Virus record (IMG/VR): IMGVR_UViG_3300028888_000097
Coordinates: 1-64,000 of that record
Source of the DNA: a virus
Taxonomy: Duplodnaviria; Caudoviricetes
Length of the DNA: 64,000 bases
Direction: 5' to 3' (one strand)
Positions within the stretch are counted from its first letter, which is position 1, and each line of letters opens with the position of its first letter. This document shows, in pieces, positions 7 through 50,074 of the stretch. The notes beneath the pieces are model-generated. The model was not told where the DNA came from, searched no databases, and saw nothing but the letters and a program-made list of their open reading frames with translations. The position numbers and the translations under genes were made by a program.

Positions 7-2742
7 GTGGTTCAGAAGGACGGACAGATTGCGATGTTCAACGACGTTGCCGAGGGGTTATCGGCGGCGGCGCGGGAAAAGAGGGAATCGCTCGATGCGC
101 GGGTCGCCTGTATGATGGAGATTGTGAAGTCCGATCCGGAGGCGCACTTCATTCTCTGGCACGATCTGGAGGATGAGAGACGGGCTATCGGTCACGCGAT
201 GCGGGAATACGCCGGACCGGGAGAATACGCGGAGATCTACGGGACGCAGGAGATTGAGGTCAAGGAAAAGGAGGTTCTGGACTTCGCCTACGGGCGGACG
301 AAATATCTGGCGACAAAGAAGGAAATCTCCGGCCAGGGGTGCAATTTCCAGCGGTTTTGTCACCGGGCGATCTTCGTGGGTGTGGACTACAAGTTCAACG
401 ATTTTATTCAGGCGATTCACCGGATTTATCGCTTCATGCAGACGGAGCCGGTCATCATCGACATCATCTACACGGAGAACGAGGACAGCATCCTAAAGGA
501 GCTGATGGCGAAATGGGACCGGCACAACGAACAGACCGAGAAGATGCGGGAGATCATCACGCAGTACGGCATTTACACGGAGATGCTTGTTAAGCGGATG
601 CAGAGATCAATAGGAGTGGAGAGAGTGGAAGTCAAGGGCAAATACTTTACGGCGGTCAACAACGATTGCGTGGACGAGACGAAGCGGATGGAGACGGACA
701 GCGTGGGGCTGATTCACACGTCGATCCCGTTTTCCAATCACTATGAATACACGCCGAGCTACAATGATTTCGGCCACAACGAGGACAACGAGCGGTTCTT
801 TGAACAGATGGACTATCTGACGCCGGAGCTTCTTCGGATCCTGAAACCGGGCCGGATCTGCGCGGTACACGTCAAGGACCGGATCCTCTACGGCAACGCG
901 ACGGGAGACGGAATGCCGGCGGTGGATCCGTTCTCGGACATGACGGTTCTTCACTACATGAAGCACGGGTTCCGGTACATGGGGCGGATTATCGTGCTGA
1001 CGGACGTGGTGCGGGAGAACAATCAGACTTACCGGCTCGGATGGAGCGAGGTCTGCAAGGACGGCTCCAAGATGGGGGTTGGCTGTCCCGAATACATTCT
1101 CTTGTTCCGCAAGCTCCCCACGGACACGTCGAAAGCCTACGCGGACGAACCGGTTGTGAAGTCCAAAGACGAATACACCCGTGCTCAGTGGCAGCTTGAC
1201 GCTCACGCATTCTGGCGGTCCTCCGGCGACCGGCTTATCACGAAGGAAGAACTGATGGAGACGGAGACGGGAAAGCTCCAGAAGCTCTACACGCAGTATT
1301 CGCGGGACACGGTTTACTCCTACGAAGACCACGTTGCCCTTGCGAAGAAGCTGGACGAGGAAGACCGGCTCCCGGCGACGTTTATGGTCTGTGCTCCCGG
1401 TTCATGGTCGGACATGGTTTGGGACGATATTGTACGGATGCGGACGCTGAACGGGGAGCAGAAGAGGAAGAACGTACAGATGCACGTCTGTCTTGCCGCC
1501 GGATCCCTGATTCTGACGCGGGACGGATACAAGCCTATTGAAGAGGTTGAACCGGGCGACATGGTTCTGACGCACATGGGACGGTGGAAGCCTGTTATCG
1601 CAAAAGCCCGGACGGGAATCAAAGATACCGTTCAGACACGGGCAAAGGGCGTTCCGAATCTTATCACGACACCGGATCACAGGCTCTGGACGCGCAGATC
1701 GGAGTTAGCGCACAAAAAAGAAGGAATGCGCCGCGCCGTTCCCGAATGGGTTGAAGCGAAAGATACGGTCGGTCACTATGTGAATCTGAAACTTCCGCCT
1801 GTTGAGGAAAGCCCTCTTAATGAAAAAGAGTGGTGGCTTGTCGGTCGGTATTTGGCGGACGGCCATAAGGGAACGCGGGGAGATTGGTTTATCTCTGTCG
1901 GCGCGGATAAGTGCGAAGAATTTGAGCGTATGGCTTTGGGGTTCTATGGTTCTCACGCCGAAAGAGACGCAAGGCAGTACCGGCTGTTGAGCGGATCCAT
2001 GAGCGACGAGCTGAAAGCCATGCTCGACAAATGCGGGCGCGGAGCTATGAACAAACAGGTTCCGATTGAAGGGATTTGTCTGAATCCTACGCTTGCCGAA
2101 GCTCTTCTGGCCGGTTATCTCTCGGGCGACGGAAATACTACCGGGAACTGCACGTCGGCGTCTTCTGTTTCCCGCGCCCTGCTTCTCGGCATGGCGATGG
2201 TTGCGCAGCGGGCGCGTGGTGTGATTGCTTCCGTATATGCGGGAAGAGGTGAGAGGACATCGACCATTGAAGGGCGCGAAGTGCATTGCAATCCGGAATG
2301 GGTGATGAGCTGGCGTGTATCCGGACATCATTGCGAGAGCGAAATCTTAGAGGACGGCGCGTGGAAGAAGGTCAAGGAAAGCATTGCAACCGGAGAACGG
2401 GAGGTGTGGAGCATTCAGGTTGAAGACGATGCTTCCTATACGGCGGAAGGGTGTGTTGTCAAGAATTGTCCCCTTCAGCTTGATATTGTGGAGCGCATTA
2501 TCAACCGCTATTCCAACGAGGGCGACGTGGTTTACGATCCGTTTGGGGGACTGATGACGGTTCCCATGACGGCGGTAAAGATGGGCCGGTACGGGATTGG
2601 ATGCGAGCTGAACAACGGCTACTTCCGGGACGGCGTGGGCTATCTGAAACTGGCTGAGGAAGAGCGGGACGAACCGGAGAAGCAGATCACGATGGGGATT
2701 CCGACACTTGCGGATCTGACGGAGGACGACGATGCAGAATGA
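7..2742 (+). CDS. DNA methyltransferase (beta-class N4C/N6A) fused to a helicase-C-like N-terminal domain, interrupted by an intein; probably 5'-truncated by the window
   Basis: Motif IV-like TSIPF precedes motif I-like DPFGGLMT; N-terminus has SNF2/helicase-C-like GCNFQ..QAIHRIYRFMQ. Confidence 0.85.
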   Translation: MVQKDGQIAMFNDVAEGLSAAAREKRESLDARVACMMEIVKSDPEAHFILWHDLEDERRAIGHAMREYAGPGEYAEIYGTQEIEVKEKEVLDFAYGRTKYLATKKEISGQGCNFQRFCHRAIFVGVDYKFNDFIQAIHRIYRFMQTEPVIIDIIYTENEDSILKELMAKWDRHNEQTEKMREIITQYGIYTEMLVKRMQRSIGVERVEVKGKYFTAVNNDCVDETKRMETDSVGLIHTSIPFSNHYEYTPSYNDFGHNEDNERFFEQMDYLTPELLRILKPGRICAVHVKDRILYGNATGDGMPAVDPFSDMTVLHYMKHGFRYMGRIIVLTDVVRENNQTYRLGWSEVCKDGSKMGVGCPEYILLFRKLPTDTSKAYADEPVVKSKDEYTRAQWQLDAHAFWRSSGDRLITKEELMETETGKLQKLYTQYSRDTVYSYEDHVALAKKLDEEDRLPATFMVCAPGSWSDMVWDDIVRMRTLNGEQKRKNVQMHVCLAAGSLILTRDGYKPIEEVEPGDMVLTHMGRWKPVIAKARTGIKDTVQTRAKGVPNLITTPDHRLWTRRSELAHKKEGMRRAVPEWVEAKDTVGHYVNLKLPPVEESPLNEKEWWLVGRYLADGHKGTRGDWFISVGADKCEEFERMALGFYGSHAERDARQYRLLSGSMSDELKAMLDKCGRGAMNKQVPIEGICLNPTLAEALLAGYLSGDGNTTGNCTSASSVSRALLLGMAMVAQRARGVIASVYAGRGERTSTIEGREVHCNPEWVMSWRVSGHHCESEILEDGAWKKVKESIATGEREVWSIQVEDDASYTAEGCVVKNCPLQLDIVERIINRYSNEGDVVYDPFGGLMTVPMTAVKMGRYGIGCELNNGYFRDGVGYLKLAEEERDEPEKQITMGIPTLADLTEDDDAE
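1489..2466 (+). mobile_element. Intein (326 aa) with LAGLIDADG homing endonuclease
   Basis: Starts CLAAGSLILTRDGYKPIEEV, ends GCVVKN before Cys+1; LVGRYLADG and LLAGYLSGDG motifs; removal restores HV-CPLQLDIVER. Confidence 0.92.
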
Positions 2743-6049: not shown

Positions 6050-6291
6050 AAAAAGCATATGATGAAGTCCTCTGCATTAGAGGGCGTGGAGCGTTCAAAA
6101 CGGGGGTGTGTTATCCGATGATGGCAGGGAATGTTTTGGTTTATAATTCGTTTTGTATTATATATGGTTTTGCCGCAAATCAAACCCGAACCGCAGAAAA
6201 AGGGGGGTATTTTGAAGTCCTCCACGGTTTAGAACAAAGCGGAGCGCGGTTTGTGAAGGTGACGCGATGCAGAAGAAGAAAAACCGGATGA
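6046..6291 (+). CDS. Hypothetical protein
   Basis: ATGA overlap. Confidence 0.5.
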   Translation: MKKAYDEVLCIRGRGAFKTGVCYPMMAGNVLVYNSFCIIYGFAANQTRTAEKGGYFEVLHGLEQSGARFVKVTRCRRRKTG

Positions 6292-45353: not shown

Positions 45354-45647
45354 ATGGCTTTATTGGATGACGCGAAGGAGGTTCGGGCAGCTCTGGCGGA
45401 GGTGATCCGACAGGAAGTGAACGGGCTGACGCAGGACTGCTTCCGGGTGAAAAAGGCGATTGTGCAGACGGCTCCGAATTCGACCACAGGGAAGTGTTCG
45501 GTACAGCTCATTGGAGACGATACGGTACTGTCGATTCCGTACAGTTCGGAGGTTTCATCCGTTTCAGCTGGGGCGGTGGTATGGGTCGCGTATTGGGGCG
45601 GGTCCATGCGGAACGCGATTGTGTGGCAGACGGCAGACTTCAAGTGA
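45354..45647 (+). CDS. Small tail-tip protein (OB-like)
   Basis: GAGGAGG RBS; last gene of tail operon. Confidence 0.6.
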   Translation: MALLDDAKEVRAALAEVIRQEVNGLTQDCFRVKKAIVQTAPNSTTGKCSVQLIGDDTVLSIPYSSEVSSVSAGAVVWVAYWGGSMRNAIVWQTADFK

Positions 45648-45853
45648 GATTAAGCAAAAAGTCATTGTGAGTTCGTTTGATTCGTCGGATTGCACAAATG
45701 AAGAGGGATTTCGTTTGAGTCGGGGATGAATATTTATGCAAGTCCGCGAAAATGTGGAAAATGAGCGGGATTTCCCGCGGAAAAATGTGAAAAGGGCGGA
45801 TTTGAAGGGGAATCCGCTTGATTTCGGGGCATTGAGAAAGAGAGGATAGCAAT

Positions 45854-46603
45854 ATGCCGAGGGGCAGGCCGAAACGCAAAAAGGCAGAGGAAGAGGGTAT
45901 CGAAGAAGTTGAGCCCGTTTCGTCCGGGTCGATGAGCGTGGAAGAGACGCTGGACCAATTGAGCCGGGAAATGGAGGAGGCGAAGGCGGAGATCGAAAAG
46001 AGACAAAAGAGGGCGGAGGCGAACAAGTCATCCCGGAGGAACGGGCGCGTCTTTGAAGATATGATCGAGCGGGCGTGTAAGTTCTATGAAGACGCTGGAC
46101 TGGCGCGGATCACAAAGGTCCCGGAGGCGCGGAGAGTCGTGGGGAGAACCGGCGGTCGGACATCCCTTATGATCTGCGCCAACGCTGCCAAGGCGGACCC
46201 GGACTTCATGGGATCCGTTTCACCGGACGGGAAGTGCATGATCTTCGATGCGAAGCACACGGACAAGGGAAAGATTCTTCTGAACGCCCTGACGAAGAAT
46301 CAGCGGGACATACTGGACAAGCACATGGCTTGCGGGGCGGACTGCTATGTGGCGGTTTCGTTTGGTTTCGAGAAGTATTACATGATTCCCTACGCGATGT
46401 GGAAGAACATGAAGGAGGAGTTCGGGAGGCAGTACATTCTTCCGGATGACGAGAAGATCCGGGCGTATTCCGTTCCGTTTGAGGTGACGGGTCAGACCAA
46501 GAAGGGCGAGGAGCTGGTGACGGTTTGGTTCCTCGGTCAGCGGGTGGATGTGCCGGTGTTCGAGGCGGAGAAGACGGAGGAAGAGGTCGTTTCATTCGAG
46601 TAA
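45854..46603 (+). CDS. recU: Holliday junction resolvase RecU family
   Basis: NGRVFEDMIE..Y....A.I.KVP, PDFMG, IFDAKHT. Confidence 0.85.
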   Translation: MPRGRPKRKKAEEEGIEEVEPVSSGSMSVEETLDQLSREMEEAKAEIEKRQKRAEANKSSRRNGRVFEDMIERACKFYEDAGLARITKVPEARRVVGRTGGRTSLMICANAAKADPDFMGSVSPDGKCMIFDAKHTDKGKILLNALTKNQRDILDKHMACGADCYVAVSFGFEKYYMIPYAMWKNMKEEFGRQYILPDDEKIRAYSVPFEVTGQTKKGEELVTVWFLGQRVDVPVFEAEKTEEEVVSFE

Positions 46604-46606
46604 AAC

Positions 46607-46642
46607 AAAAAAAGAGGGGCGGGTCATTGCGATCCGTCCCTT
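46607..46642. terminator. Bidirectional terminator between recU and CRISPR array
   Basis: GGGGCGGGTC/GATCCGTCCC stem with A-tract left and T-rich right. Confidence 0.7.
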
Positions 46643-46670
46643 ATATTATTTTCCGTATATGGCGGTTTTC

Positions 46671-46908
46671 CGTCTCCTCGCACGTCCGCGCGAGTTGCGT
46701 CAATCAGAAACGCGGTGCGCTCAATCCTGATGGTCCGTCTCTTCGCACGTCTGCGCGGGTTGCGTCGCTATCCGTGTACAAAAAGGCTTTTCATTCCGGT
46801 TGACGCCCCCGTCAACTCGCACATGCACGCGGGATGCATCGTTTGGGAAGACCATTCTGGTGAGGTCAACAAAATGCCGTCAACTCGCACATGCACACGG
46901 GATGCATC
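46671..46908 (-). CRISPR. Mini CRISPR array: four 31-bp repeats, three spacers (34, 43, 37 bp)
   Basis: Repeats at 46671, 46736, 46810, 46878; minus-strand consensus GAYGCAWCYCGYGYR.AYGTGCGAR.WGACG with a conserved central hairpin that is G-U compatible only on the minus strand. Confidence 0.8.
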
Positions 46909-47172
46909 GGCGAAATATCCATTTTTCAAGGTGCATCTTTGGTTATAATGTGCAAGGCTTTCCGCGTATTGAGGTCTTTTCCGCTTCGGTTGACAGATTG
47001 CTCTGTATGGGCGAAACGGCGCTGAACCCCTTTCCGCAAAGCATTTCCCGTCTTGCAAACCGGATAAACCGATTCGTCTTTATCGACGGAGGGACCATGA
47101 CCGGGACCCTTTTCAACTCATTTTGGGAGTGCGAATCTCCCGACTTATTCTGTGGGCTTGGGTTTCGCGGGA

Positions 47173-48672
47173 TTAACGAATCCCCATACTGCTCAGGTGT
47201 GGTTTGCTTTCTGAATTGAGCCGATCCATTTCGGCATCGTGTAAGGATGCGAATTGAGGGTAGGTTTTCTTGCAGAGTTTTTTATCGGGTTCTTCTAACG
47301 ACGGAGAAGAATTCATCAGAAGAAATGCTGAATACAAATCTCTTTGTATCTTGTCCCCGTTTTTCAGGTGATTCCAGCGCTGTTCCAGAGTCTTCTTTCT
47401 GTATTCGTCTGCGGTGTGATCGTACTGACTTGCCCTAAAGGTCCACTTGGCAACTTCATGGTATTCTCCGCCGACCCGTTGACCTTTTTGTTCAAGCAGA
47501 AGCATGAACATTCCGGGGGCGCGGTTGGCAATAGACTTTCCGAATCGTTTCTTCCGGGCGAAATTCCCGTTTTTGTCTTTCTTGGTTTCTTTCGCCCGGC
47601 GCGCCAGTCCGCTCCATTCCATCGGCTCTATGTAGATTTCCCTGCCGAGCGACAGGATGTGATTCGCCATCCGGCAATGCTCCTGCTTCCGAATATCGGC
47701 GTTCTTTCGTTCCAATTCGCGGACGCGGCCTTCCATACGGAGGTAATGCTTGGATTTCGCCCACCGCAACTTGATGCCGCGTCTGATGGTTCCGTCCGGA
47801 TTGAAGTTGTCCGGGTTCGTCGCTCTGCGGCTTCGGTCCATCTTCCGCTGAAGCGCAACCTTCTCCGCGTGATTCCGTTTCACTCCCGCCGCCAACTCCG
47901 CAAGCCGGACTTCGGTCGGAGAAGACCACGCTATCGTCTGCGTACCAATGTCGATTCCGACGCGGCCTTTTCCGACGGGGCGGTATTTGGAAGCGGGTTC
48001 GCCCTGGTAGGTAATCTGGAGATAATACTTGTATCTCGTTTTGATCCACTTCCGGACGACGCGCATATTGCGGACTTCCTTCTGCATCATTTCCCGTTCG
48101 TAGGCGTTCTTGGGACGGCGGATGCGGATTTTCATAATCACACAATCGTCACAGCGTCCGCCTTTCCATGTGAAAACGTCTCCGTCAATGGTCATGCCGT
48201 CTCCGCGCGGGTACTTGCAAGCGATGCTGTCCAGCGAACCACGCTTGTGGAAATGAACCGCTTTCCCGTTTGAAAACAGATACTTTTCAAAGGAACGCCA
48301 TACATCCTGCCCGGATCTTTGCGCGACGTTTGCGCTGATATGAGGGGCAAAATGCTTGTGAACAGCCAAATCGGTGGTGTCTTTGGAGAACCGAAAGTCT
48401 TTGAACCCGGCTTCTTTCAGCATCGCGTTCCGCTCCTTGAACAGAACTTTCTTCTGCTTTTCGTCAGAGCATTCGCGGATGGATTTTGCGAGGCGTTTCC
48501 ACGCCCTCGTCCGTTCAAGCTGTTTCAGTTTGCGGAGTTCAAACCCGATGAGGGTATTCTTGAACTTTTCCACAATATCGAACCGGGTTTCGATGATTCT
48601 GTCCTGCCAGGGTTCGGTGAGCAGAGGAAGCGTCAGCACACAGCAGACGGATTCCTCGTTTGATTTCGCCAT
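47173..48672 (-). CDS. tnpB: TnpB/Cas12-like RNA-guided nuclease, 499 aa
   Basis: RuvC-I VGIDIG, RuvC-II IYIEPM, RuvC-III QRDLYSA; bridge-helix-like RRATNPDNF region; no Cys zinc finger. Confidence 0.88.
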   Translation of the reverse strand: MAKSNEESVCCVLTLPLLTEPWQDRIIETRFDIVEKFKNTLIGFELRKLKQLERTRAWKRLAKSIRECSDEKQKKVLFKERNAMLKEAGFKDFRFSKDTTDLAVHKHFAPHISANVAQRSGQDVWRSFEKYLFSNGKAVHFHKRGSLDSIACKYPRGDGMTIDGDVFTWKGGRCDDCVIMKIRIRRPKNAYEREMMQKEVRNMRVVRKWIKTRYKYYLQITYQGEPASKYRPVGKGRVGIDIGTQTIAWSSPTEVRLAELAAGVKRNHAEKVALQRKMDRSRRATNPDNFNPDGTIRRGIKLRWAKSKHYLRMEGRVRELERKNADIRKQEHCRMANHILSLGREIYIEPMEWSGLARRAKETKKDKNGNFARKKRFGKSIANRAPGMFMLLLEQKGQRVGGEYHEVAKWTFRASQYDHTADEYRKKTLEQRWNHLKNGDKIQRDLYSAFLLMNSSPSLEEPDKKLCKKTYPQFASLHDAEMDRLNSESKPHLSSMGIR

Positions 48673-48707
48673 AATTGACGCTTCCTTTCGTTTGGATTGA
48701 TGGTATC

Positions 48708-48736
48708 ATTATACCGAAACCGGGATTTTCGATTAA
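48708..48736 (-). promoter_or_regulatory. Promoter for tnpB/array
   Basis: TTAATC-17 bp-TATAAT on minus strand, upstream of GAAAGGA RBS. Confidence 0.55.
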
Positions 48737-48778
48737 CCGGTAGTGATGAAACTTCCGTAAATATCGTTCGGACAATGT

Positions 48779-48807
48779 AAAAACCGCCGGAGATTGGTCG
48801 GCGGTTT
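48779..48807 (-). terminator. Terminator after recombinase 2
   Basis: AAACCGCCG/CGGCGGTTT stem, U-tract on minus strand. Confidence 0.7.
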
Positions 48808-48833
48808 GGGGTATTCCTTTCGTTTCGTTCAGG

Positions 48834-49838
48834 TCAGAGGGTAAACGCGGAGAACTTCTCGGCGATATTCTTCGCGGCCTTCGCTTTATTGAGAATGTGG
48901 GTATAGACTTTCTCTGTGGTGCGGAGGCTGGAATGGCCGAGGGCAAGCTGAACATCGCGGATGTCGGCTCCGCCGTCGGCCCAGAGGGACGTCGCGCAAT
49001 GGCGGAGAAGGTGGGGATAGATGTCGCGTCCGATGACACGCTTTCCATATCGTTTGACGAGGCGGTCTAAGGTGGAGGCGTGGAACTTATGCCAGAGTTC
49101 GGCGCGGTTCGGTTCGTTCCCTTCGGGTTCATCAGTTTCTTCTTCCGATTCTATTTTGCCATCGTGCTGATGGGTTCCGAAGAGGAAGTCTTCATCGGTT
49201 GCCCATGCGGGGCGAATGCCGGAGTTCAGGTAATTCCGGAGGACGATTTGCGCGGCGGGCATGAAGGGGACGTTTCGTTCCTTCGATCCCTTGCCGTTCC
49301 GGACGGTGATGGTTTTTTCGTCCCAATGGAGATCTGAAGGGCGGAGTTCGCGCAGTTCGTCCGATCTGAGGCCGGTTAAGATGATGGTGGCAACGATGGC
49401 GTAGTTGCGCTTCGGGAGTTTGCCCTTGATGGAAACCGGGATATTGGCGGGGTCGAGCAGCCGTTTGATTTCGTCTTCCGAGGGGATTTCCTTTTTGGTG
49501 AAGGTGAAAGCGGGGCGGCTGGATTCGGGGATGGGGGATTCGGAGACGAGCTTCATTTTCTTCGCCCACGTGAAGAAGCGTTCGACCGCGCCGTAATACT
49601 GATTGGCGGAATTCTGCGAGACGGTTGACATGAGAGAATCGCTCCACTCCTGAACGGTTAAGGGGGTGATTTCATCGGGGTTCGTTTCGTTCAGGTAATC
49701 CCGGAATTTGCGTAATCCGAGGTCATAGGCGCGGACGGTATGTTCGGACTTCTTCTGGGCGCGTTCGGAGGCGAGGTATCGGGGGTACAGTTCGTTATAT
49801 TCGGCGGGGGTGAGGGATTCCGGGATCTGGTGGGACAT
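48834..49838 (-). CDS. Tyrosine recombinase 2 (XerC/D-like)
   Basis: TGLRSDE, KGSK, HLLRH, LGH, TEKVY. Confidence 0.9.
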   Translation of the reverse strand: MSHQIPESLTPAEYNELYPRYLASERAQKKSEHTVRAYDLGLRKFRDYLNETNPDEITPLTVQEWSDSLMSTVSQNSANQYYGAVERFFTWAKKMKLVSESPIPESSRPAFTFTKKEIPSEDEIKRLLDPANIPVSIKGKLPKRNYAIVATIILTGLRSDELRELRPSDLHWDEKTITVRNGKGSKERNVPFMPAAQIVLRNYLNSGIRPAWATDEDFLFGTHQHDGKIESEEETDEPEGNEPNRAELWHKFHASTLDRLVKRYGKRVIGRDIYPHLLRHCATSLWADGGADIRDVQLALGHSSLRTTEKVYTHILNKAKAAKNIAEKFSAFTL

Positions 49839-49855
49839 GGTGGATCTCCTTTCGG

Positions 49856-50074
49856 TTAGTTTTCCGGTTCGTTTGGTTCGGTGGCAAATAGAATATTGGA
49901 AACAGATACAATGACCCGTTCGACATACTCTTCGCAGTTATTGAGGCCCGATCCGACGAGAATTTCAGCGTTCGGCGGGCAGTGGGACAGGATTTTAATC
50001 AAATCCCGGACGGTAAAGACGCTGTTTTCGTCGGGGCGGATTGTTTTGTGATTGAATTCGGTGGAGATTTTCAC
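49856..50074 (-). CDS. Hypothetical protein
   Basis: TVRDLIKILS.CP.NAEI pattern; RBS. Confidence 0.6.
   Translation of the reverse strand: MKISTEFNHKTIRPDENSVFTVRDLIKILSHCPPNAEILVGSGLNNCEEYVERVIVSVSNILFATEPNEPEN

Follow-up and report, generated by a model that had tools for sequence, protein, structure and literature searches.

The 64,000-nucleotide (nt) stretch analysed here, referred to below as the window, consists of positions 1 to 64,000 of IMGVR_UViG_3300028888_000097, an IMG/VR virus record that is 90,681 bp long in full and rated complete. On the minus strand of the window lies a gene for a 499-residue protein apparently related to the transposon nuclease TnpB, followed by a structured RNA region (the scaffold) and then by two very short CRISPR arrays. 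Together these probably constitute an adaptation-less, TnpB-derived type V-like module, of the kind described under the names TranC and Cas12-U, that would serve in conflict between phages. The same gene-scaffold-array layout was found in 45/45 of the clade relatives examined, a recurrence that shows the layout is not due to chance. A role between phages is proposed because spacers of this phage (S1) and of phage G002 match other phages, and because the arrays turn over between identical effectors.

The protein retains the complete RuvC catalytic site. The three acidic residues, in the motifs GIDIG, YIEP and QRDLY, are invariant in an alignment of 30 homologous sequences as well as in 11 more distant homologues, and the segment from RuvC-II to RuvC-III is free of CxxC pairs, with no cysteines at the place where TnpB and Cas12f hold a CxxC...CxxC zinc ribbon; the alignment agrees with the initial annotation of a protein having the triad and no zinc finger. 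Pfam returned no significant family, and the NCBIfam profiles for guided TnpB (NF040570) and for type V c2c8 gave 57.8 and 54.5 bits against cut-offs of 100 and 350, respectively. PADLOC yielded weak matches to Cas12u2 (57 bits), Cas12f (47.5 bits) and also Cas12u4 over the C-terminal, RuvC-containing residues 192-453, and the PHROG label is transposase (phrog_506, E 1e-37). An AlphaFold (AF2) model with a mean confidence (pLDDT) of 84 is closest to ISDra2 TnpB (Z 17.9 over 344 residues), followed by ISFba1 TnpB (Z 15.9) and Cas12f, whereas the solved TranC structures, LaTranC 9jfq and 9jfo, fall below these at Z 12.0 and 11.1 with 15% identity. A search of Protein Data Bank (PDB) sequences with the single sequence found nothing relevant, and the family profile recovered only the RuvC part of Cas12n (9j09, E 7e-4) there, with LaTranC not among the matches at E up to 10. 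Derivation from TnpB and loss of the transposon, as first annotated from the window, are supported for this RuvC nuclease. The gene is single-copy in the 90.7-kb phage genome, and none of Cas1, Cas2, Cas4, Y1 TnpA or a serine recombinase was found in that whole genome, so that the absence of transposase, cas1, cas2 and cas4 originally noted for the window holds for the entire phage.

The origin of the effector is best seen from its relatives, which were examined in assemblies (L002-L005 and L111-L117), in 80 loci of IMG/VR and in 80 loci of GTDB genomes, using a script that screened the downstream side of the gene for spaced repeats and its upstream side for a Y1 transposase gene. The family is large: more than 4,000 proteins were hit at E < 1e-3, gut Clostridia and phage contigs account for most of them, and identity to the query is 51% or more in every one of the best 120 clusters. 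Besides the window, 45 loci have a downstream array with a period of 64-69 (4 + 7 from the assemblies, 7 + 1 from IMG/VR with degenerate L003-like cases included, and 26 from bacteria), and 0/45 have TnpA upstream. A Pfam-confirmed IS200-type Y1 TnpA gene lies directly upstream in 31 viral and 34 bacterial loci, none of which has an array; among the 80 viral and 80 bacterial loci an array and an upstream TnpA never occur together. Maximum-likelihood analysis places the array-bearing proteins in a single clade (support 100 for eleven rows, 86 when L012 is added) that nests among the TnpA-linked TnpBs, and the nearest array-less relatives, at 35-41% identity, stand directly behind IS200/IS605 Y1 TnpA genes. 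Because these sister lineages carry the Y1 TnpA and no array, the ancestry of the clade is evidently of IS605 type and not IS607. The IS607-type, RAGATH-18-associated affinity first proposed is therefore not supported, and a search of positions 45500-50000 for RAGATH-type RNA in Rfam gave no match at E up to 1. The complete domain layout, with the cysteine-less segment, is found in the TnpA-linked relatives as well, so no change in the protein was needed for it to become array-associated.

The bacterial members of the family, among them Ruminococcus bromii ATCC 27255, Ruminococcoides, Pseudoflavonifractor, Christensenella and Oscillospiraceae, have it in ordinary, fixed chromosomal sites. The cultured R. 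bromii strain (L120, NZ_NNSR01000073.1) has a 53%-identical effector and an array of seven repeats. A 204-aa serine-recombinase (Resolvase) gene, which may encode an IS607-like TnpA or a phage resolvase, lies 167 nt upstream of an array-bearing relative of 53% identity (L111/L112:2220-2834), in a phage or plasmid-like region that also has toxin-antitoxin genes, and in a relative from a Joint Genome Institute (JGI) metagenome (L005:134-1877) eight tRNA genes are clustered about 2-4 kb upstream of the effector gene.

The region beyond the effector gene is more elaborate than a plain array (Table 1). Four direct repeats are present, as initially annotated, with repeat lengths of 33 nt and intervals of 35, 41 and 32 nt in place of the 31-bp repeats and 34-43-bp spacers first given. 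The unique spacers claimed for them are fewer than thought, since the middle interval matches the 3' part of a relative's scaffold and thus is not a captured spacer. This 41-nt segment resembles the scaffolds of L003 and L004 in addition to that of L002, and the scaffold profile finds a match at 46803-46670 (E 1.4e-4). The window thus holds two tandem units: unit A, with a full scaffold, two repeats and spacer S1, and a truncated unit B, with a scaffold remnant, two repeats and spacer S3. Comparable doublings exist elsewhere. In L011 (4929-5310) a whole scaffold occurs a second time, and after it comes a further array whose repeat is different, and an extra scaffold copy lies upstream of the effector gene in L004 (3688-3915), so that scaffold-plus-array cassettes appear to duplicate as units.

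Table 1. Features of the effector locus (positions in the window).
Feature	Position	Strand	Description
Promoter-like site	48708-48736	-	TATAAT at 48713-48708, 17-nt spacer, weak -35 at 48736-48731; read by eye, tentative
Effector gene	47173-48672	-	Open reading frame (ORF), 499 aa; predicted TnpB-fold RuvC nuclease (D241, E349, D445; zinc-ribbon cysteines absent)
Scaffold, unit A (tracrRNA / omega-RNA-like)	46910-47172	-	263 nt, stop codon to first repeat; conserved, covarying
Repeat 1, unit A	46877-46909	-	33 nt
Spacer S1	46842-46876	-	35 nt; matches two phage contigs (positions 1-26) and own genome (31/35)
Repeat 2, unit A	46809-46841	-	33 nt; one mismatch to repeat 1
Scaffold remnant (3' end), first annotated as spacer 2; start of unit B	46768-46808	-	41 nt; 36/38 to L002 scaffold
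Repeat 1, unit B	46735-46767	-	Variant type, 73% identical to unit A repeats
Spacer S3	46703-46734	-	32 nt; target search negative
Repeat 2, unit B	46670-46702	-	Terminal, most divergent, best hairpin
Intrinsic terminator (predicted)	46614-46642		Flagged on +; minus-strand stem then T run; bidirectional, common to convergent RecU-like gene

The scaffold fills exactly the distance between gene and repeats that was measured at the outset, and its transcript may start inside the 3' end of the effector ORF. Its sequence is kept in relatives down to 42% protein identity, and an nhmmer profile built on it matches all of the array loci and nothing else, scaffold A itself scoring E 1e-51. RNAalifold on ten loci yields 35 base pairs, of which 20 show compensatory double changes, including pairs of a hairpin inside the repeat. 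Folded as single sequences, only the distal repeat forms a hairpin (z -2.7) and the proximal pair does no better than shuffles; the hairpin repeats of the initial annotation are thus supported by covariation among relatives but, from single sequences, in the distal repeat only. Neither the scaffold nor the repeats correspond to an Rfam family. The profile also gave no match downstream of the array-less IS605 relatives, and homology between the scaffold and their omega-RNAs is therefore unsupported. Pairing is possible between the 3' part of the scaffold and its cognate repeat, in the manner of tracrRNA (trans-activating CRISPR RNA), and the cognate repeat gives a better duplex than shuffled ones do in the window (z -2.0), L004 (-3.5), L005 (-2.2) and L011 (-4.4), for which reason such tracr:repeat pairing is considered likely; L002 and L012, where the duplex does not beat shuffles, are taken up below. 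The scaffolds of L002 and L003 each close with a repeat-like segment, and sequence of guide length comes directly after it, resembling an unsplit omega-RNA.

Two phage contigs that are unrelated, L086 of IMG/VR and L109 of a metagenome, match positions 1-26 of spacer S1 at 26/26, and there the site is one of four or five tandem imperfect repeats of about 32 nt (L086:8270-8430, L109:270-435) that are non-coding, with stops in all frames, and iteron- or operator-like. A further S1 match, of 31/35 with mismatches at positions 11, 13, 28 and 34, lies beyond the window, at 74477-74511 of the genome of the phage itself (L110:1978-2012), inside long open frames of 288 aa (+) and 252 aa (-); Pfam and PHROG found no family for these frames on either strand. 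Because the 5' flanks of the three S1 sites agree only in A at -2 and C at -1, a 5' protospacer-adjacent motif (PAM) ending in AC is suggested tentatively. Phage G002 has a spacer with a 36/36 match in its relative, phage G001. The phage in the window is itself targeted: a 33-nt spacer (L129:3197-3229) in the chromosomal array of a Ruminococcus sp. metagenome-assembled genome (MAG) from red deer matches window positions 736-768 (+) at 31/33, inside a helicase-like gene (ORF at window 7-2742). This match suggests that the host of the phage is of Ruminococcus type and that bacterial members of the family may defend against this phage. A separate observation concerns spacer 4 of L011, a palindromic and terminator-like sequence that matches 26/26, the same length as the S1 match, at 6265-6290 of the viral contigs L034, L036 and L037, some 1.8 kb downstream from TnpB genes of IS605 type. 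No match in IMG/VR was obtained for single spacers of L005, L002 and L116, and the arrays of L005 and L012 gave only chance-level matches (E about 0.5) in INPHARED.

The arrays of the clade turn over. L114 and L115 have an identical protein at the same chromosomal site and zero spacers in common. The L116 array, with at least 12 repeats, has a distal end equal to the four-repeat array of L117, an indication that units are gained in a polarised way at the scaffold-proximal end. Among the near-identical phages L006-L010 the arrays have two to five repeats with differing spacers, one spacer being common to L008 and L010 at different positions. The relatives thus show arrays, differing spacers and protospacers, the opposite of the array-less homologues, invariant spacers and missing protospacers that the initial annotation had listed as counter-evidence. 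The effector gene of L008 (3001-4518), a related phage, has one internal stop, and a spacer of its array matches phage G001 perfectly.

Cas1 was undetected in 13 of the 25 array-bearing bacterial genomes, a figure limited by draft and MAG incompleteness, and none was detected in the draft genome of R. bromii ATCC 27255. A possible derivation of the repeats as copies of host Cas1-linked arrays is not supported: in three host genomes of relatives the Cas1-linked repeats are unrelated, with one weak similarity of 9/11, in a comparison limited by low identity. The geometry of 32-nt repeats and 33-35-nt spacers presumably resembles that of type I-C.

The carrier is a temperate sheep-gut phage in which the module lies between a RecU-like resolvase gene and an integrase gene. 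The neighbours comprise a tail protein gene, the RecU-like Holliday-junction resolvase gene on the convergent strand, and a tyrosine integrase gene just upstream on the same strand as the effector. A sheep-gut metagenome was the only run with the whole stretch and may be the source sample of the record, and the locus DNA has no match among the INPHARED phages. A purine-rich ribosome-binding site directly precedes the effector ATG. The promoter of its own that had been attributed to the gene has mixed standing: the consensus promoter scan listed none upstream, and the perfect TATAAT of Table 1 favours one tentatively. A second promoter-like match, with a -35, an 18-nt spacer and a -10-like element, covers the 3' end of the first repeat and the start of S1 (46883-46854, -); promoter-like matches in that region do not exceed shuffles (2 found against 1.3 expected). 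Of the two flanking terminators first described, the one beyond the arrays was flagged and is predicted to act in both directions and to end the array transcript (46642-46614), whereas the hairpin after the integrase gene (about 48780-48806), which has a 9-nt loop, was not flagged by the terminator tool.

On these findings a working scheme for the module may be outlined. Gene, scaffold and the two mini-arrays would form one minus-strand transcript from the promoter just upstream of the gene. The scaffold would act as the tracrRNA or omega-RNA body that loads the nuclease and whose 3' part pairs with the repeats, and each repeat would bring the following 32-35 nt as guide, in the repeat-5', spacer-3' order of other type V systems. 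The resulting ribonucleoprotein (RNP) would recognise matching double-stranded DNA beside a short 5' motif and cut it through the intact RuvC site. Its targets would be other phages entering the same cell, giving superinfection exclusion or competition between phages, which the prophage would probably provide too. The phage's own copy of the S1 target should be spared because of its four mismatches, including those at positions 11 and 13. Anatomy, conservation, covariation, the turnover of arrays in relatives, the spacer matches and the occurrence in RNA libraries were observed; RNA processing, tracr:repeat pairing, PAM, cleavage and biological role are inferred.

Several points weigh against this scheme. 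Each array of the window is minimal, consisting of two repeats, and unit B is incomplete, so that only one or two guides may work. S3 had no target in IMG/VR, and most spacers of the relatives likewise had none, leaving S1 as the only window spacer with any. The S1 matches in L086 and L109 both end at 26 nt and are within an iteron-like non-coding repeat, and the PAM is drawn from three flanks only, two of them homologous sites. The anti-repeat pairing is better than shuffled in 4/8 loci tested and no better in L002 and L012. The RNA data, which place the locus in two sheep-gut metatranscriptome runs, are assembled contigs from a single sample without strand or reliable ends, with one depth value per contig, and contig depth is a poor measure of expression. 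With that reservation, contigs at 46841-47516 (k-mer depth 40) and 46660-47100 (depth 30, ending in Illumina adapter at 46660), set beside contigs of depth 6-7 over the body of the effector ORF, hint at abundant RNA that spans the ORF's 3' end together with scaffold and arrays. No RNA contigs of run X2 cover the flanks 45736-46287 and 49048-49599, which does not show that their genes are silent.

One alternative is that the family works but the copy in this phage is a decaying relic that is no longer effective. The repeat pairs of the two units are only 73% alike, unit B is without most of the scaffold, the proximal repeats fold poorly alone, and the related phage L008 has the interrupted gene described above. 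Such decay is nevertheless unlikely in view of an intact ORF with all conserved residues, a complete scaffold A that fits the family profile closely, RNA contig depth at the locus above that of its neighbours, and the exact 26-nt targets of S1 in other phages.

A more ambitious proposal, doubtful as it stands, is that the clade represents an uncatalogued lineage of TranC or Cas12-U in which the birth of an array is still visible and spacers are gained without Cas1-Cas2. Traces of such a birth may be found in the scaffold-end repeat with its guide in L002 and L003 and in the tandem units of L011, L004 and the window.

The initial annotation left open whether the module is used for competition between phages or for control of genes. 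In the latter case the RNP would bind imperfectly matching sites, one being the 31/35 copy of the S1 target in the genome of the phage itself, and would repress or tune transcription in place of cutting, in the manner of TldR or Cas12m or by autoregulation through partial matches. The existence of that near-match and the regulatory- or origin-like character of the non-coding tandem repeats that S1 matches in other phages speak for such control. However, the RuvC triad is invariant across the family whereas known repressor derivatives have lost it, the self match is mismatched at positions 11 and 13, and spacers that differ wholly between identical effectors fit immunity better than a fixed regulatory circuit. 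Gene control is accordingly kept as a minority possibility, and quite an unlikely one, and competition is favoured by the spacer matches and the turnover.

That the gene is an ordinary mobile IS200/IS605-type TnpB, non-autonomous and without TnpA, with an omega-RNA for homing and incidental repeats, is highly improbable and largely refuted: PHROG and the source records do label the family transposase, and the sister lineages are genuine IS605 elements, some of them multi-copy (three copies in one contig, L051-L053), but here the gene is single-copy in a genome without TnpA, the clade has arrays in 45/45 members and an upstream TnpA in 0/45, the spacer sets vary, and the bacterial members are in fixed chromosomal sites.

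The preferred interpretation, a TnpB-derived module with arrays for conflict between phages, places the locus among systems that are already known. A catalogue of 2023 has 40 array-linked Cas12-U groups that arose from TnpB independently and have a downstream array but lack cas genes (PMC10691335). The name TranC and a model of functional RNA splitting come from Jin et al., Cell 2025 (188:6283), as related in PMC13565253 and PMC13639567, and a 2026 preprint (10.64898/2026.03.27.714800) describes several TranC clades, including Ruminococcaceae/Oscillospiraceae members with 32-36-bp repeats and the phage-borne CauTranC9. Over the TranC clades, repeats range from 32 to 38 bp with a median of 4.5-5 repeats (PMC13565253, PMC13639567, 10.64898/2026.03.27.714800). 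A module of this kind is thus already published, as Cas12-U in 2023, as TranC in 2025 and from a phage in the 2026 preprint. The TnpB-to-Cas12 intermediate proposed at the outset is accordingly supported in its conserved linkage of scaffold and array but is not new in concept (PMC10691335).

The likeness to TranC comprises a TnpB-derived effector of near-TnpB size, a downstream array, the lack of cas1, cas2 and cas4, descent of IS605 type, 32-33-nt repeats and small arrays within the ranges of the clades, and an ancestral right-end or omega RNA whose functions may be divided between a tracr-like scaffold and guides borne on the repeats. A TranC lineage is an array clade nested in transposon-borne TnpBs of IS605 or IS607 type, which is the position of the window's clade by its tree and its TnpA-linked sisters. 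The TranC texts consulted do not mention the lack of zinc-ribbon cysteines, the tandem scaffold-plus-array units or the repeat-like scaffold ends of L002 and L003.

With Cas12-U, Cas12f (V-F), V-U2 (c2c8) and V-U4 the module shares a single RuvC effector and an array at the position of the omega-RNA, and with Cas12-U and the small type V effectors the lack of adaptation genes, an independent origin from TnpB and the weak profile matches to Cas12u2, Cas12f, Cas12u4 and c2c8. It differs from c2c8 and Cas12f in scoring far below their cut-offs and in lacking the zinc fingers of Cas12f, an enzyme that works as a dimer. Nuclease-dead TldR, Cas12m and Cas12k are set apart by the triad retained here. 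The IS200/IS605 TnpBs ISDra2 and ISFba1 resemble the effector most closely in structure and also have a structured RNA directly after the gene, unlike which the present gene is single-copy, lacks a transposase, has arrays of changing spacers, encodes about 100 more residues and falls short of the guided TnpB cut-off. Of the features by which type V systems in the broad sense are known, conserved linkage of effector and array (45/45), variable spacers and matches to mobile elements are present, most spacers having no match.

Viral CRISPR mini-arrays against related viruses are established (PMC11656645), and the module is like them in that a virus genome carries one or two spacers directed against viruses that are related or that co-infect. 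The classical mini-arrays borrow host Cas proteins and copy host repeats (PMC11656645), whereas this phage brings its own effector and scaffold.

The clade documents a case from nature in which a TnpB lineage turned into a CRISPR effector while its protein gained no domains, and its 499-residue cysteine-less nuclease with a scaffold of roughly 260 nt is a candidate compact editor, although mining of many similar ones is under way. Array turnover where Cas1 is undetected, or where the Cas1-linked repeats are unrelated, was not seen described in the texts consulted and raises the question of how cas1-less arrays gain spacers. Because the family is present in the cultured R. bromii ATCC 27255, it can be tested at the bench. 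The reciprocal use of one clade by phage and bacteria was likewise not seen described in those texts. This family, abundant in ruminant and human gut Clostridia, appears to stand on both sides of the conflict between phage and host, the phage copy being directed against other phages and a bacterial copy against this phage.

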